This document shows, piece after piece, positions 42,018 to 48,876 of a DNA stretch of 64,000 nucleotides. How positions within the stretch are numbered: position 1 is the stretch's first letter; each line of letters starts with the position of its first letter. Position numbers and translations under genes: made by a program. Under the pieces are notes generated by a model. The model was not told the DNA's origin, made no database searches, and was given only the letters and a program-made list of their open reading frames with translations. Source of the DNA: Erysipelotrichaceae bacterium (GTDB lineage: Bacteria > Bacillota_I > Bacilli_A > Acholeplasmatales > Anaeroplasmataceae); the NCBI GenBank assembly GCA_015059145.1, contig SVAZ01000006.1, positions 2,268 to 66,267 of the forward strand, given 5' to 3'.

Positions 42018-44324
42018 TTAATTTGCATATCTTTCAAACGTCAACTTAGTAACCTTAGTTTCCTTGTCTACAGAAGCTGAGCATATATAATACAACCCAG
42101 GCTTTAAAACTACTGATCCAGACTCATGTAGCATAATTTGACCAAATTCAGAAACTACATAAACATTGTGATCAGCATCTGTTGTACCTGATGTCGCATT
42201 TAAATTAACCTTAGCATATTCAGATAATCTAAATGTAATACCTTGTCCCATAAATCTACCTTTATTAGCATTAGTATATAATATGCCTGTATCACTTGAT
42301 AATGACGCTTCATAAGCTCCACTACATAAATCAACTGCAGTAGAAATGCTGTATTTATTTGATTGAATGCTTGCATCTCTAGCTGCTTGATTAAGAATCG
42401 TTCTATAATAAGAGCCTGAAAATTTCAAGCATTCCTCTCTAGCTACCATTGGTATTGTAAGATAACAATCAGACACCTTATTTATAGTATCAAAATAAAA
42501 TACCTCAGGATTAGTATCAAAATTTGAATAATCTATATCATTATATGCACAGCTGTTTTCTACAGCTGTTTCTCTATTAATATATATCATTTTTGATGTA
42601 TTTGATTTAAGACATGCTAGATATATATTATTAAACATCTTACCACTATTTGATTTACCATCACTAATCTGCTTGCAGCCCTCATAATAGTTTCCTTCTG
42701 AAAACATATATGAATCTGCACGCAAGGAATGAACATATCCTAATTGTGTTATACCGTTGGATAAGTCACCATATATATAATTATTATAAAAATGGAAATT
42801 TGCTTTTCTCAATAATGGAATACGCCCTTCGCAATTATACCATATATTGTGATGGAATGAAATATTATATTGAAGTGATGTATCACTTGAACCAATTAAA
42901 TTAGATTTACGACAATACTCATAATAGCAATAGCTCATAGTATAATATTGACCGCGTTTAAAGTCACAAGCTCCGTCTCCATAGAGTTTATCATTTTCCA
43001 CAGGATTTTCACAATATCCAGCAAAGAACGTACAGTGATGAATCCAACAACGCTCTACTGGAGCAACAAGAATATTATCATTCTGTTGACCCTCCATCCC
43101 TATTGCATCTTCTGGATAATTTTTGAATGTTAAATTTCTAACCTCAAAGCTCTTCCCATATACTCCTGTTGTATCATCACATATAAAATGAAAGCCCCAT
43201 CCCTCAATTATTGCATCAAAGCCTACACCCTCTAATGTAACATTCTTTAAATTCTTCATTTTAACCATGTGGCCGTTTTCTTCTACTGTTCCACCCTCAT
43301 GTGAAGAATTATATGAGGTTGCACCCTCGGGTGTTGTTACAGTACCTATAAACCTAACAACAACTGGTCTAGAAATACTACGGAAGCCTAAATCTTTCCC
43401 AGTTGGGCTATATGTGTTACTGCTTGATTCAGCATTAAGTGTACCATTTTCATTTTTCACACACATTGTGTATTGAGAATTATTTAGCCACCAGCCTATA
43501 CCTGAGGCTTCTTTATTATACCAGCTATTAGAAAAATAATTAGGAATATTAAACATATCTAAGTCATATTCAGCACATACATCAGTCATAACGGTATTCT
43601 TATTTTCCTCTGTCACATAAATAACTATAGCATCGTCCTTTAATGTGCCATCATCGTTATATGCACCAACACCATCACTGTATTTAAAATGAGCATATCC
43701 AGATCTATCATATTCAACTACATTAATTTCGCAAATAGCCTTCCAGCCTTCCATTTCAGTAGAATCAACTACTGGAATTAGCTTAACATCATAATCACCC
43801 TTAGCTAAGCCAAATAAATCTATTCTTGTGGTAGTTTCCGTTAATTGTCTTACATAAAAATCTTCTTTGTAAAGCAATTTATAATCAGTATCATTTGTAC
43901 CCTTTATATATACATTAAATGAATCAGCATTTTCGATATTTATAAATTCAAAATAAGCAGCTTCATTTAATCCACTAACCTCAATAAAATTAAACTCCCC
44001 ACTTGTAACTACATTACCTGTACCATTTTTTAAAAGCCCTTCAGTAAGACCTAAATTAGTTGAAGCGATTTCTTCCACCTTTTCCTTATCAGTATCATCC
44101 TCTATTAAAGCATCATCCTCAACGTCAGGCTCTTGTGGAGCTTGAACATCCTCCTGTATTTGATTGTCATCCTTATCTGCTTCATTTTTATCTTCTTCTA
44201 CATCACCAGTATTTGGCTTTGTAATATCTTCAAATCCATTATCCTTCTTACATGAAGCAAGCATAGTAGTAGATACTAATAAAAACACTAAAACTATGCC
44301 AATAAAAAATCTTCTAAATTTCAT
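42018..44324 (-). CDS. Second lipoprotein pectate lyase PL1 (paralogue)
   Basis: Lipobox LASC; YDRSGYAHF/GAYNDDG shared with neighbour; CWIHHCTF, GDGACD, RIPLLR; start ATG 44324. Confidence 0.85.
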   Translation of the reverse strand: MKFRRFFIGIVLVFLLVSTTMLASCKKDNGFEDITKPNTGDVEEDKNEADKDDNQIQEDVQAPQEPDVEDDALIEDDTDKEKVEEIASTNLGLTEGLLKNGTGNVVTSGEFNFIEVSGLNEAAYFEFINIENADSFNVYIKGTNDTDYKLLYKEDFYVRQLTETTTRIDLFGLAKGDYDVKLIPVVDSTEMEGWKAICEINVVEYDRSGYAHFKYSDGVGAYNDDGTLKDDAIVIYVTEENKNTVMTDVCAEYDLDMFNIPNYFSNSWYNKEASGIGWWLNNSQYTMCVKNENGTLNAESSSNTYSPTGKDLGFRSISRPVVVRFIGTVTTPEGATSYNSSHEGGTVEENGHMVKMKNLKNVTLEGVGFDAIIEGWGFHFICDDTTGVYGKSFEVRNLTFKNYPEDAIGMEGQQNDNILVAPVERCWIHHCTFFAGYCENPVENDKLYGDGACDFKRGQYYTMSYCYYEYCRKSNLIGSSDTSLQYNISFHHNIWYNCEGRIPLLRKANFHFYNNYIYGDLSNGITQLGYVHSLRADSYMFSEGNYYEGCKQISDGKSNSGKMFNNIYLACLKSNTSKMIYINRETAVENSCAYNDIDYSNFDTNPEVFYFDTINKVSDCYLTIPMVAREECLKFSGSYYRTILNQAARDASIQSNKYSISTAVDLCSGAYEASLSSDTGILYTNANKGRFMGQGITFRLSEYAKVNLNATSGTTDADHNVYVVSEFGQIMLHESGSVVLKPGLYYICSASVDKETKVTKLTFERYAN

Positions 44325-44426
44325 ACAACTCACCCTGTAGTTTTTTATGGTACTAATTAAAATAATTATATTATATTATATTTTAATATATATTATTTAC
44401 ATAGTCAATTAAGCAGCTATAATAAA

Positions 44427-45296
44427 TCATTCGTTTTCCAACAGGATATACATTTCATTTTCTAATAATCTTTTTAAATAATTAGATGGTTTATCAAGCG
44501 GGCGCCTATATTCAAGAGTATTATATCCCAGTAAATACATTACATACTTAATACCAATAGGAGATACCTCAGCATACATGATTCTAATAAGATTAAACAG
44601 CCTATAAAACATCTCTTTGCATAGAGAATCATTGGTTTTAAATAACTGTATTATTTTTCTGATGTCACTAGGAAATGCATTTCCTATAACATTAATTACA
44701 CCACTTGCTCCTAAATAAAGAGATAGTAGCATTGTAGAATCATCACCACTATATAGCTTAAAATCATCATTAATAAAATTAGCTATTTGCAGCTGATATA
44801 AAAAATCGCCTGAGGCTTCCTTTATTCCTACAATATTTCTATGATAAGATAATGCACTTACCACATCAATGGGAATATTCATACTAGTTCTCTTGGGAAC
44901 ATTATAAATAACCAAAGGCTTCCTTATATGATCAGCTATATACGTAAAATGCTTTAAAAGTCCAGAGGTATTTGTTTTATTATAATATGGATTTATAGCT
45001 AAAAAGCAATTTACATCAAAATCATCAAAAAGGCCTGCTAATCTTACAGCCTCCTCAGTAATGTTTGATATTATTCCTACCATTATATCAATCTTTTTAT
45101 AAACTCTTTCATAAATAAATTTTACAACGCTAACCTTTTCATCATCACTTAGTGCTTCGGCCTCTGCAGTTGTGCCAAGTAATAATAGTCCATCTGTGTT
45201 TTTTTCCAGATGAAGACTACATAGTCTATCCAGTTCTTTAAAATCTATTTTATTATTTTTAAATGGAGTTATTAACGCAACAATACTTCCATTCAT
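44427..45296 (-). CDS. dapA: 4-hydroxy-tetrahydrodipicolinate synthase
   Basis: ALITPF, GTTAE, PYYNK, YNVPKRT, IKEASG, YSGDD, PIGIK. Confidence 0.88.
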   Translation of the reverse strand: MNGSIVALITPFKNNKIDFKELDRLCSLHLEKNTDGLLLLGTTAEAEALSDDEKVSVVKFIYERVYKKIDIMVGIISNITEEAVRLAGLFDDFDVNCFLAINPYYNKTNTSGLLKHFTYIADHIRKPLVIYNVPKRTSMNIPIDVVSALSYHRNIVGIKEASGDFLYQLQIANFINDDFKLYSGDDSTMLLSLYLGASGVINVIGNAFPSDIRKIIQLFKTNDSLCKEMFYRLFNLIRIMYAEVSPIGIKYVMYLLGYNTLEYRRPLDKPSNYLKRLLENEMYILLENE

Positions 45297-45299
45297 AAA

Positions 45300-45334
45300 A
45301 AATCACACTCCGTTTTATTGTATGAGTGTGATTT
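45300..45334 (-). terminator. Terminator-like hairpin overlapping the dapA RBS
   Basis: Minus strand AAATCACACTC-N13-GAGTGTGATTT, U6 tract overlapping the stem base, then ATG. Confidence 0.75.
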
Positions 45335-45342
45335 AATATTTG

Positions 45343-46644
45343 CTATTTATTTTTCCTTCCAGACTTGATTAATTCCTCTTCCATTAGTTCTGGATTTTTA
45401 AGTGCATAATCCTGATGGTATTCCTCAGCCTTGAAAAAAACTGCATTAGGCAAAACAGGAATACGAGCACTCTTATTATACTGCTCCTCCAGCTTACCCA
45501 TAACCTCATGAGAATAATAAATGACAGTTTGATCATCAGAATAAATAGCACATGTATAATTGCTACCTCTATCAATAAATTGCCCCTCAGAATCGAACGG
45601 ATCAATTGTATCAAAATAAATATCAATAAGCTGAGTCGAAGAAATTACATTGCTATCATATTCAATAAGGATACCCTCTTTAAATTTAGTTTTACCTGCT
45701 TTAACATCCTCGTATGTTGGATTAATAGTATCCCCACCAACAAAGCCACTCAAAACCCTACGAACTCCATCATATTCATAATACGGCTTTGCCATACACC
45801 AAAAGCAGCCTCCCGCTACTAATAGGCTTCTAACACTATCAGACATATATTCAACCTCATATTTAGAATTACCGTATTTATAGCCAAGGCTTGAATAAGT
45901 ATGATTAGAAATAGGATTATTTTTGTCTACATATAGATAAGGTGTCTTTCCATCAAACAAAATATCCTTTGAAATTTTACCTACCACCTTTTTGGCATAG
46001 CCCTTAGATCTAAATTTTTTCTTAGTATAAACATAAGATATAGAGCATATAGTTTCATCTTCTCTAGTTTTTCTAGCTATTGAAACAATTTCATCGTTTT
46101 CCTTCACACAATAAAAATTAAAATAATAATCGTCGACCAAAGACTTTATACCACTAGCATCAGCACGTCCTAATGCCTCTAATGAAAACTCCTTGCATAA
46201 GCTATATAAAGCCTTCTTATCCGTAGCTGTACAAGCCATAACATCAGTAGTATCAATATCTGCACATTCATCAAGATACATTATGTCCATAGACATATTA
46301 ACCTTATGACTACCACCCATTCTAGCTTCATAATGCTTATAAAATTCCTTATAAATATTCTGAGTTGTTAATACAGCTTGAAAAAATAAATTATGATCAC
46401 AAATAACATCACAGGCTTCCTTACATAATGATACATCTCCAAATAACAAAAGATTATATGGATAGTATTGACATAATAGCAAAGCCTTATTATTAGAGTA
46501 AACCTTAATCAAATAGTTTTCTCTAGTAAAGCCATTCATTTTCCTTGCATTAGTATAGAAAAATGAGGTATCAAGGATATTTTTATTTAATATATCCTTA
46601 TTCTCTTTTAAAAACTCTAAACCACTTGTATATATCTTAAACAT
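45343..46644 (-). CDS. GNAT acetyltransferase fused to peptide methionine sulfoxide reductase MsrA
   Basis: ISYVYTKKKFRSKGYAKK GNAT motif A; C-terminal AGGCFWC...QFIDRG...AEEYHQDY. Confidence 0.87.
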   Translation of the reverse strand: MFKIYTSGLEFLKENKDILNKNILDTSFFYTNARKMNGFTRENYLIKVYSNNKALLLCQYYPYNLLLFGDVSLCKEACDVICDHNLFFQAVLTTQNIYKEFYKHYEARMGGSHKVNMSMDIMYLDECADIDTTDVMACTATDKKALYSLCKEFSLEALGRADASGIKSLVDDYYFNFYCVKENDEIVSIARKTREDETICSISYVYTKKKFRSKGYAKKVVGKISKDILFDGKTPYLYVDKNNPISNHTYSSLGYKYGNSKYEVEYMSDSVRSLLVAGGCFWCMAKPYYEYDGVRRVLSGFVGGDTINPTYEDVKAGKTKFKEGILIEYDSNVISSTQLIDIYFDTIDPFDSEGQFIDRGSNYTCAIYSDDQTVIYYSHEVMGKLEEQYNKSARIPVLPNAVFFKAEEYHQDYALKNPELMEEELIKSGRKNK

Positions 46645-46708
46645 AAATATCCTCCTTTCTAAGAAAAATAAAGAGCCAGGAGCACTGGCTCTTAATTCCC
46701 TTTCTTAG

Positions 46709-46906
46709 TTAAGCTTTACAAACGTTCTTTGCTAATTGGCCTCTATCGCCATTCTCAACCTCAAAGGTAACCTCTTGGCCCTCTTCTAATGACTTATAGC
46801 CATCAGCTACAATTGCGCTAAAATGAACAAATACATCATTACCCTCTTCAGATACAATGAATCCGTATCCCTTTTCAGCATTGAACCATTTTACTTTCCC
46901 TTTCAT
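46709..46906 (-). CDS. cspA: Cold-shock protein
   Basis: [17 protein letters not shown]...DVFVHFSAI; start ATG 46906. Confidence 0.96.
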
Positions 46907-47046
46907 TTTTAATACCCCTTTCAAACCTCTTAATAGTTAGTATCGAACTTCCTATTATGTAAATTATACAATAAAATTGAAAAATCTACAATATTTTTAA
47001 CACAAGAAAATTAAAATAATAAACCCCCTATCACTAGGGGATTTTT

Positions 47047-48876
47047 CTAATTATTCTTTTCTGATCTTACCTTTGCATCATATTTCTTACGTTCAACAGT
47101 ATCTAAAATTTTCTTACGTAAACGAATATTCTTTGGAGTAACCTCTACAAGCTCATCCTCATTAATAAACTCTAAACAAGCCTCTAGCGTTAAAACTCTC
47201 GGTTTCTTTAAAACAACTGTTGTATCCTTATTAGAAGAACGAGTATTTGTTTGCTGCTTTGCCTTTACAACATTAACAGCTAAATCTAAATCCTTATTAG
47301 CCTCACCGACAATCATACCCTCATATATTTCCTCACCTGGAGAGATAAACATACTTCCTCTATCCTCAAGCGCGCCTATAGAATACGCAGTAGATTGACC
47401 CTGAGCCATAGAAACTAATACACCAGTATTTCTTTCACCAACGCTCACGCTTTCCATTGGGCGATAATCCATAAAGCTATGATTGATAATACCATATCCT
47501 TTTGTTAATGTCATAAAATCAGTGTTAAAGCCTATCAATCCTCGAGATGGAATATTATATATTAATCTAGTCTGAGTTTCAGTATTAGTCATTGTTTCCA
47601 TACTACCATGACGGTTACCCATCATTTCAATAATAGATCCAGCACATTCACTAGGTAAATCAATAACACAGTATTCGTATGGTTCACATAAAACGCCATC
47701 AATTTCCTTCATGATAACTCTAGGTCGAGAAACCTGAAATTCATATCCCTCGCGTCTCATATTTTCAATTAATATACCTAAATGTAATTCACCACGTCCT
47801 GATACAATCCATTCCTCTGAACCAGATAATCTTTCCACCTTAAGAGACACATCCTTTTGTACCTCTTTAAAAAGTCTTTCCTCGATTTTTGTTGCGGTTA
47901 CAAGCTTCCCATCCTTACCACAAAATGGAGATGTATTTGTACCAAATGTCATTTGTACTGTAGGCTCAGAAATATGAAGCTTTTCTAAAGCCTCCTCTTG
48001 GCCCTGAGTACAAATAGTTTCACCAACAGAAATATCTGGCAAACCAGCTACCGCCACAATATCTCCGGCATATCCTTCATTAATTTCAATTCTTTCTAAT
48101 CCCTGAAATCCATAAAGCTTTTGTACTCTAAATGATTTAATGCTACCATCAAGCCTACAGCATGAGACAGACTCACCAAGCTTAATAGTACCTCTTGTAA
48201 TTCTACCAATACCAATACGACCCACAAAATCAGTATAATCAAGTAGTGCAGGCTGTAGCTGTAATGGCATATCATTATCCATTTGAGGAGCAGGGATATG
48301 CTTTATAATCATATCTAACAACTGATCCATTCCAACCTTTTGAGTTGATAAATCCATTTCAAGTGAGCATGTATTATTTACAGCTGATGCATAGCACACT
48401 GGGAAATCAAGTTCATCCTCATCACAGCCTAAATCTATAAATAGCTCTAGCACCTCATCAATAACCTCTAGTGGTCTAGCTGATGGCTTATCTACCTTGT
48501 TAATAACAACTATAGGCTTTAAATGAGCTTCGAATGCTTTCTTTAAAACGAATCTAGTTTGTGGCATTGTGCCTTCATAAGCATCTACAACTAAAACGAC
48601 ACCATCAACCATCTTCATAATTCTTTCTACCTCTCCAGAGAAATCAGCATGACCTGGAGTATCTAAAATATTAATCTTTGTATCCTTATATTTAATTGCG
48701 GTATTCTTTGCTAAAATCGTAATACCTCTCTCACGCTCTATAGCATTAGAATCCATTACTCTTTCTTGAACAACCTGATTATCTCTAAATGTATGAGAGC
48801 TTCTTAATAGCTTGTCTACTAATGTTGTTTTACCATGGTCTACATGGGCAACAATAGCTATGTTTCTAATTTCCAT
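47047..48876 (-). CDS. typA: Translational GTPase TypA/BipA
   Basis: AHVDHGKTT, ERERGITI, DTPGHADF, NKVD, SGRGELHL. Confidence 0.98.
   Translation of the reverse strand: MEIRNIAIVAHVDHGKTTLVDKLLRSSHTFRDNQVVQERVMDSNAIERERGITILAKNTAIKYKDTKINILDTPGHADFSGEVERIMKMVDGVVLVVDAYEGTMPQTRFVLKKAFEAHLKPIVVINKVDKPSARPLEVIDEVLELFIDLGCDEDELDFPVCYASAVNNTCSLEMDLSTQKVGMDQLLDMIIKHIPAPQMDNDMPLQLQPALLDYTDFVGRIGIGRITRGTIKLGESVSCCRLDGSIKSFRVQKLYGFQGLERIEINEGYAGDIVAVAGLPDISVGETICTQGQEEALEKLHISEPTVQMTFGTNTSPFCGKDGKLVTATKIEERLFKEVQKDVSLKVERLSGSEEWIVSGRGELHLGILIENMRREGYEFQVSRPRVIMKEIDGVLCEPYEYCVIDLPSECAGSIIEMMGNRHGSMETMTNTETQTRLIYNIPSRGLIGFNTDFMTLTKGYGIINHSFMDYRPMESVSVGERNTGVLVSMAQGQSTAYSIGALEDRGSMFISPGEEIYEGMIVGEANKDLDLAVNVVKAKQQTNTRSSNKDTTVVLKKPRVLTLEACLEFINEDELVEVTPKNIRLRKKILDTVERKKYDAKVRSEKNN

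Follow-up and report, generated by a model that had tools for sequence, protein, structure and literature searches.

How is a gene expressed when its ribosome-binding site lies in a terminator-like hairpin, and what would a promoter-like box be doing in the loop of that hairpin? These questions are raised by the start of dapA2, a gene on the minus strand of a 64,000-nucleotide (nt) stretch of contig SVAZ01000006.1 from an Erysipelotrichaceae bacterium; we refer to this whole stretch as the window. An earlier reading of its letters (the original prediction) had proposed that the hairpin houses a sigma-K-like promoter and that DapA may be made mainly during sporulation. From comparative sequence analysis, we consider it reasonably probable that dapA2 is a late mother-cell gene with a promoter lying within a hairpin that would terminate transcripts of the upstream gene and keep read-through RNA silent. 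The features concerned are the following.

45344-45341, minus strand: -35-like AGCA, overlapping the upstream gene's stop codon and exactly 16 nt upstream of CATA
45334-45324, minus strand: 5' arm of the stem, AAATCACACTC, the segment complementary to the Shine-Dalgarno sequence (anti-SD; direct reading and folding)
45324..45316, minus strand: -10 box CATACAATA, CATAnnnTA, sigma-K type, reaching from the final 5'-arm base into the loop
45323-45311, minus strand: loop ATACAATAAAACG, 13 nt (direct reading)
45311..45309, minus strand: predicted transcription start, from Clostridioides difficile sigma-K offsets applied to the box at 45324-45316
45311-45306, minus strand: Shine-Dalgarno sequence (SD) GGAGTG, with 5/6 bases (GAGTG) in the 3' arm
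45310-45300, minus strand: 3' arm GAGTGTGATTT, holding most of the SD (direct reading and folding)
45302-45297, minus strand: U6 run, candidate terminator tail for the upstream gene, abutting the ATG (direct reading)
44427..45296, minus strand: dapA2, a stand-alone second 4-hydroxy-tetrahydrodipicolinate synthase gene, 289 amino acids (aa; TIGR00674, Pfam DHDPS)

Read along the minus strand, the TAG stop codon of the upstream gene (45345-45343) is followed by the 5' arm, the loop, the 3' arm, six T residues and the ATG at 45296. Direct reading and folding bore out an 11-bp stem with U6 directly before the dapA ATG and an SD lying mostly in the 3' arm, both of which had been described originally. 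The stem has 5 G-C pairs, and three residues of the U6 run are able to pair with the AAA at its base. Using ViennaRNA, we found the hairpin to be both the minimum free energy structure and the centroid structure (-15.2 kcal/mol, z = -5.28), and 0 of 200 shuffled sequences were as stable; an 84-nt read-through context folds at -22.7 kcal/mol (z -4.8). The pairing probability of the dapA2 SD in the read-through RNA is 0.91, which ranks 18th among 1302 genes in a genome-wide comparison based on crude gene calls, where the median is 0.53 and 1.9% of the genes reach at least 0.9. The further claim that a transcript from the internal promoter would lack the 5' arm and free the SD was likewise supported, as RNA beginning at 45311, the predicted start, has no significant fold over the SD (z -0.85). 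No further terminator-like structure was found between the stop codon at 45343 and the ATG, and the hairpin is therefore the upstream gene's only terminator candidate. A consensus terminator scan did not list it because its 13-nt loop exceeds the 3-8 nt limit of the scan.

The -10 consensus of B. subtilis sigma-K is CATAnnnTA, which the box CATACAATA matches exactly. That of the forespore factors sigma-G and sigma-F is CATnnTA, and a sigma-G/F promoter was rejected because the CATA-N3-TA spacing is unlike it. The coordinates given in the original prediction were all correct, with CATACAAT at 45324-45317 and AGCA 16 nt upstream; the full CATACAATA box extends to 45316. Promoters of the sigma-E and the sigma-K class have a common -10 element and differ in the -35 element, ATA versus AC (PMC3789822). 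The -35-like AGCA is weaker evidence than the -10 box; two of the sigma-K promoters mapped in C. difficile have TAGCA-type -35 regions. Transcription from the sigma-K promoters mapped in that species starts at the fifth to seventh base after the 9-nt box (PMC3789822, Table S7). A start at the corresponding positions, 45311-45309, would fall on the first bases of the 3' arm, so that the promoter's own transcript would lack the 5' arm, and by analogy its leader would be about 15 nt long and begin with the SD.

We examined 106 genomes of the family for dapA2 orthologues (at least 47% identity) and for dapA1, the other dapA paralogue (about 40% identity). Orthologues of dapA2 are present in 29/106 genomes belonging to three genera, and dapA1 is present in most genomes. 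All 29 dapA2 loci match CATAnnnTA exactly, at a distance of 22-29 nt upstream of the start codon, although the flanking intergenic sequence is not alignable and the middle bases of the box comprise 13 different triplets. A metagenome scan yielded only two additional close orthologues. The exact box is also present in L068, a locus on a human-gut metagenome contig (65% identity) with msrA upstream as in the window, and the ninth base of the box is A in L068 and in 29/29 loci. In the -35 region, AGCA is found in the window and G039, CACA (AC at N17) in G038, G031 and L068, and AC at N16 in G002. As an observation on two of these orthologues, L038 (in G002) and L069 (on a metagenome contig) have ATC at the homologous start, with no ATG, GTG or TTG there, and their sole in-frame GTG lies 2 nt past the box; these are either genes with a non-canonical start or decaying copies.

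The control was spoIVA, which belongs to the sigma-E targets of model organisms, read in 29 genomes of the same set. There, ATA lies at -19 to -17 (A in 27, T and A in 29/29), at N16 to CATAnnnT; AC at N16-17 is found in 0/29. The ninth base is T or G in 27/29 and A in 2/29, and the box lies 34-38 nt before the ATG, giving a longer leader than that of dapA2. By comparison, ATA is at a spoIVA-like distance in only 4/29 dapA2 loci. The spoIVA locus of the genome holding the window, which we designate G000 (G000:C9:33943-35409, plus strand), and 28 related loci (L146-L175) form a clean sigma-E reference for this lineage. The predicted promoter class of dapA2 is thus distinct from the sigma-E class of spoIVA, and this contrast agrees with the published sigma-E/sigma-K -35 rule (PMC3789822) and so supports the sigma-K call. 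We regard it as very probable that the dapA2 promoter is read by a sporulation sigma factor, and as probable that this factor is sigma-K specifically.

The SD-hiding stem of the window is also found in L068, G038 and G031. In L068 it has 9 bp and a 13-nt loop. In G038 it has 11 bp, with the 5' arm shifted 14 nt further upstream and a loop of 27 nt; the upstream csp gene in G038 has its own canonical terminator, and the stem is kept nonetheless. In the 9-bp stem of G031, one T-A pair has become A-T, a compensatory change, and an A has become G to give G.U. The pairs were checked by hand; MAFFT aligned the CATA boxes and not the displaced 5' arm of G038. Loop lengths over the four stem-bearing loci are 13, 13, 14 and 27 nt, and this variable arm spacing favours RNA pairing over a protein operator. 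Other stems that occlude the SD or AUG surround the same box in G016 (15 bp, in which the box pairs with the AUG region), G020/G033 (11 bp) and G072 (10 bp), and these are putative convergent solutions, unrelated to the stem of the window. In genus g12, the csp terminator adjoins the box.

The gene itself is a predicted dapA by family score and catalytic motifs. Its product scores 255.9 bits against the TIGR00674 dapA model (cut-off 206) and matches Pfam DHDPS at 3.6e-65, and it falls far under the cut-off of each of the NanA, HpaI and KDG-aldolase models. Its top match in the PDB is dihydrodipicolinate synthase 3a5f, with which the segments GTTAE/GTTGE, PYYNKT, IYNVPKRT/IYNVPGRT and GIKEASG/AVKEASG coincide; we take the DapA catalytic set, in E. 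coli numbering, to be the Schiff-base lysine K161, T44, Y107, Y133 and the substrate arginine R138. A second, better-scoring dapA in the same genome, dapA1, is 39% identical to dapA2 and lies on contig C23 within a lysA-dapF-dapA1-dapB-asd operon, while dapA2 is monocistronic and unlinked to dpaA, asd and dapG. The original prediction had pointed to other dap/lys genes and to spoVFAB. The former are present as this housekeeping operon, whereas canonical spoVFAB was not found in G000: DpaB is absent and the DpaA family score is 65 bits against a cut-off of 320 (TIGR02853), which rules out a canonical spoVF and leaves only a divergent DpaA-like gene. An Rfam E-value search of positions 44000-47200 found nothing in the dapA2 leader, and a riboswitch or other known leader RNA was rejected on this basis. 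The genome's single lysine riboswitch (RF00168, 86 bits) lies at a contig end (G000:C29:305-471, minus strand). Behind it come its terminator and an open reading frame that by eye resembles the N-terminal part of a TnpB of the IS200/IS605 type, and the assembly does not show the gene that the riboswitch would normally control.

The host, which is uncultured, is equipped for sporulation in gene content. G000 is 1.43 Mb in size with 31% G+C and is 94% complete, and its closest named relatives are metagenome-assembled genomes labelled Anaeroplasmataceae, Anaeroplasma and Avacholeplasma. It encodes SigK (NF004471, 260.6 bits, cut-off 252), SigE and SigG from adjacent genes on contig C25, Spo0A, SpoIVA (over its cut-off) and SpoVAC/SpoVAEB. 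Several 0A-box-like repeats, TTCGACA / TGTCGAA, lie about 160 nt upstream of spo0A (G000:C15, gene match 123380-123691), which suggests that Spo0A autoregulation may be retained. Many Anaeroplasmataceae genomes carry sporulation genes, and the sporulation capacity of the lineage has so far been suggested from gene content only (PMC10868615).

Of the 106 family genomes, 49 have spoIVA, and 28 of the 29 with dapA2 belong to these; the 29th, G038, encodes Spo0A, the DpaA-like protein and the short DapB paralogue described below (DapB2). In the genus of the window, dapA2 is found in 13/14 genomes with spoIVA versus 1/26 without it, counts that come from related genomes and are not independent samples. 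The genes for DapA2, the DpaA-like protein and DapB2 are limited to genomes that have sporulation genes; dapA1, by contrast, is kept by spoIVA-positive and spoIVA-negative genomes alike. This phyletic pattern fits a sporulation-only role for dapA2. The original suggestion that DapA is made mainly in sporulation is therefore supported by comparison for the paralogue dapA2, but it does not extend to DapA activity overall, given that dapA1 belongs to the housekeeping operon.

Across G000, box positions cluster 20-33 nt upstream of genes, and 28 genes have the box at 18-36 nt. These include the genes for CotE, a CotZ-like protein, YlbD, a weak CotO-like protein, a SpoVB-like flippase, a large asparagine synthase and a MurE-like ligase, together with the DpaA-like gene and the gene for the short DapB paralogue. 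The DpaA-like gene (G000:C1:47376-48146, minus strand) encodes a divergent dehydrogenase of 256 aa (TIGR02853 65 bits, DpaA_N 22 bits) that keeps the GYGNIG Rossmann motif. CATATTTTA stands 22 nt ahead of its TTG start codon. Of 30 orthologous loci, 25 keep CATAnnnTA at 22-27 nt before the start, and AC is at N17 in those of genus g12. Orthologues are found in 48/106 genomes of the family, a group that is essentially the spoIVA-positive one. Likewise, the DapB2 gene (G000:C15:84506-85129, minus strand; 207 aa, EIH..K.DSPSGTA active-site motif kept) has CATATAATA 23 nt before its start, and CATAnnnTA lies 23-25 nt before the start in 26/30 loci, the remaining four having CGTAnnnTA. Orthologues of DapB2 are confined to the sporulating subset, and the protein may serve the supply of diaminopimelate for the cortex or have a part in making dipicolinate.

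Other G000 genes, too, have a terminator-like hairpin with the SD as its 3' arm and with a U run and AUG behind it; they are given here by contig, strand and 0-based gene-start index.

C6, minus strand, 4188
C13, plus strand, 28097
C30, minus strand, 25009
C33, minus strand, 59234
C29, minus strand, 5357
C15, minus strand, 1774 (gene-end index)

Three or four more hairpins have CATAnnnTA in the loop or 5' arm, including those of genes for a 139-aa Q/N-rich protein and an 80-aa protein. The predicted design of dapA2 is thus one that recurs in G000.

Two alternative accounts concern the sigma factor that reads the box and the role of the hairpin. If the mother-cell promoter were read by sigma-E, early in sporulation, rather than by sigma-K, the gating would be the same and the timing earlier. 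There is an ATA at -22 to -20 in the window, and the box-bearing genes include those for the SpoVB-like protein, YlbD and asparagine synthase, whose B. subtilis counterparts are sigma-E dependent. This ATA, however, lies 19 nt from CATA, beyond the 15-18 nt of mapped sigma-E promoters, and it is absent from G038, G031 and L068; spoIVA, with its ATA at N16 and ninth base of T or G, is unlike dapA2 in both respects. The AC at N17 upstream of the DpaA-like gene in g12 also speaks for sigma-K, and dpaAB and murE belong to the C. difficile sigma-K regulon and dpaA of model organisms is sigma-K dependent (PMC3789822). We consider sigma-E quite unlikely. Alternatively, the hairpin could be just the terminator of the upstream msrA-fusion gene, squeezed against dapA2 by genome compaction, with SD occlusion a by-product and dapA2 transcribed from its own promoter. 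That the stem ends in a U run, that other G000 genes have a 3' arm that is the SD with a U run and AUG behind it, and that most dapA2 orthologues are without the stem and abut a csp terminator would all be explained in this way. Such an account does not lead one to expect the retention of the stem in G038 alongside a canonical csp terminator, the co-varying arms in G031 or the recurrence of unrelated occluding stems around the box in G016, G020/G033 and G072. Moreover, the loop is unusually long and unstructured for a G000 terminator and houses the -10 box; the hairpin is atypical as a terminator, and its long loop accommodates the box. A terminator and nothing more is therefore unlikely in our judgement.

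Highly improbable, in our estimation, is a third account, in which the box is a housekeeping sigma-A -10 element driving constitutive dapA2 expression, or the inverted repeat is the operator of a dimeric repressor. A TAnnnT core (TACAAT / TATAAT) is indeed contained in CATAnnnTA, and many orthologues read TATAAT. Constitutive expression from a sigma-A promoter was the contrary case raised by the original prediction, and a sigma-70 promoter scan listed no such promoter at the site; neither a TTGACA-like -35 element nor a TG extension is present. Sigma-A does not require the CA that precedes TA or the A that follows T, yet neither varies, and dapA2 is confined to genomes with sporulation genes while dapA1 is kept in non-sporulating relatives. 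An operator for a fixed protein dimer was rejected, as it is incompatible with the 13-27 nt arm spacing given above.

Several observations nevertheless weigh against a sigma-K promoter nested in an insulating hairpin. The -35 element of the window is GC instead of AC, with the C in place and G for A; the proposed fit to the sigma-K consensus is exact, and invariant in 29/29 loci, for the -10 box. For genus g12, the tail of the csp terminator occupies the -35 region, where C at -18 alone is common (19/29). A leader this short, with the SD at its extreme 5' end, is unusual, and in the g12 orthologues the predicted start may even cut into GGTGAT. The -10 box has been conserved among relatives, as the original prediction would have it, but the SD-hiding stem has been kept in only 4 of about 31 orthologous loci and is therefore not essential to dapA2 regulation. 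A 13-nt loop is long for a terminator: loop lengths of 3-6 nt account for 81% of 279 terminator-like hairpins in G000. In addition, the stem takes up half of the U6 run, three residues. Finally, the genome-wide signals are modest: 39 crudely called genes have the box 15-45 nt upstream versus 11-37 for permuted motifs, and box genes are only weakly enriched for an occluded SD (21% versus 7% at a probability of at least 0.8, p = 0.04).

The sequence features, fold statistics, box conservation, the contrast to the sigma-E class and the phyletic tie to sporulation are results of the analysis; from them we infer the acting sigma factor, the transcription start, termination, translational occlusion and the metabolic role as follows. 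The dapA2 gene would be a sporulation-specific dapA paralogue in a small spore-forming, Anaeroplasmataceae-like gut bacterium, and its mother-cell transcription would be driven by a promoter of sigma-K type, (A/G)C-N16/17-CATAnnnTA. Because its -10 box sits at the junction of the 5' arm and loop and transcription would start at about 45311-45309, the leader would be without the 5' arm and translatable. Transcripts arriving from the GNAT-msrA gene would carry both arms; the 11-bp stem with U6 would end most of them, and those reading through would have their SD buried by the stem. Late in sporulation, DapA2 would then provide the 4-hydroxy-tetrahydrodipicolinate needed for dipicolinate and, acting together with DapB2, for the diaminopimelate of the cortex, without recourse to the housekeeping lysA-dapF-dapA1-dapB-asd operon.

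The surroundings of dapA2 include the gene from which read-through transcripts would come.

45343..46644, minus strand: upstream gene, GNAT acetyltransferase-MsrA fusion, 433 aa (Pfam PMSR 1.6e-42 and GNAT domains; TIGR00401 msrA 129.6 bits)

Further upstream, a csp (cold-shock) gene and its leader (46668-47082, minus strand) give a weak Rfam match to the cspA thermoregulator (32 bits, gathering score 78). Two pectate lyase genes lie downstream of dapA2. No terminator was found between the dapA2 stop codon and the first of these (44334-44426, minus strand), and the pectate lyase genes might be reached by the dapA2 transcript; the first has its own sigma-A-like promoter, TTGACT-17-TAAAAT, at 44408-44380.

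A 1.4-Mb spore former would in this manner keep a biosynthetic enzyme strictly developmental, by duplicating the gene and wiring one copy to a late promoter nested in an insulating hairpin and leaving the lysine operon untouched. The DpaB-less DpaA-like gene and the short DapB paralogue are candidates for the missing dipicolinate chemistry. A broader proposal, which we put forward tentatively and hold to be doubtful in its entirety, is that compact-genome sporulating Anaeroplasmataceae-like bacteria insulate late mother-cell genes as a rule, by placing a sigma-K -10 box within or next to a hairpin in which the SD or AUG of transcripts coming from upstream is hidden, and that an unlinked module of DapA2, short DapB2 and DpaB-less DpaA-like protein makes dipicolinate and cortex diaminopimelate apart from the lysine pathway. 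If true, the insulating rule would provide strict developmental expression without intergenic space, and the module would imply a dipicolinate synthase that works without its flavoprotein subunit.

The hairpin part of this arrangement has a counterpart in a mobile element. Davis, Simons and Kleckner reportedly described, in 1985, fold-back inhibition of the IS10 (Tn10) transposase gene as a protection against read-through from outside promoters. As in IS10, a segment upstream of the gene's own transcription start is complementary to its ribosome-binding site, so that transcripts from outside fold back and escape translation and those from the internal promoter lack the segment; for dapA2 this is a prediction. 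Unlike the IS10 transposase gene, dapA2 is a chromosomal metabolic gene, its stem also carries a U run and should terminate transcription, and its internal promoter is developmental and of sigma-K type. The hairpin is also like the intrinsic terminators that overlap the next ribosome-binding site in compact genomes, with a stem and U run directly after the upstream gene and the SD in the 3' arm, and differs from usual intrinsic terminators in its unstructured 13-nt loop containing a conserved -10 box.

With respect to dipicolinate, dapA2 is predicted to resemble B. subtilis spoVFA-spoVFB(-asd-dapG-dapA) and C. difficile dpaAB in having a late mother-cell promoter of sigma-K type (consensus AC-N16/17-CATAnnnTA) for a dipicolinate precursor. 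The dapA and dapB genes have been described as recruited to sporulation in B. subtilis (PMC6878958), and C. beijerinckii has a sporulation-induced dapA/dapB operon beside a second dapA (PMC6362236). Sporulation-induced copies of dapA and dapB are thus already known, and the general view of sigma-K control over dipicolinate synthesis is unchanged. In contrast to B. subtilis spoVF and C. difficile dpaAB, dapA2 is a separate, diverged and monocistronic paralogue with a sigma-K-type promoter of its own and a predicted leader of about 15 nt, unlinked to dpaA, asd and dapG, in a genome with a divergent DpaA-like protein only and no DpaB. The differences lie in a paralogue that is unlinked and has a promoter of its own, in the lack of DpaB and in the proposed insulating architecture.

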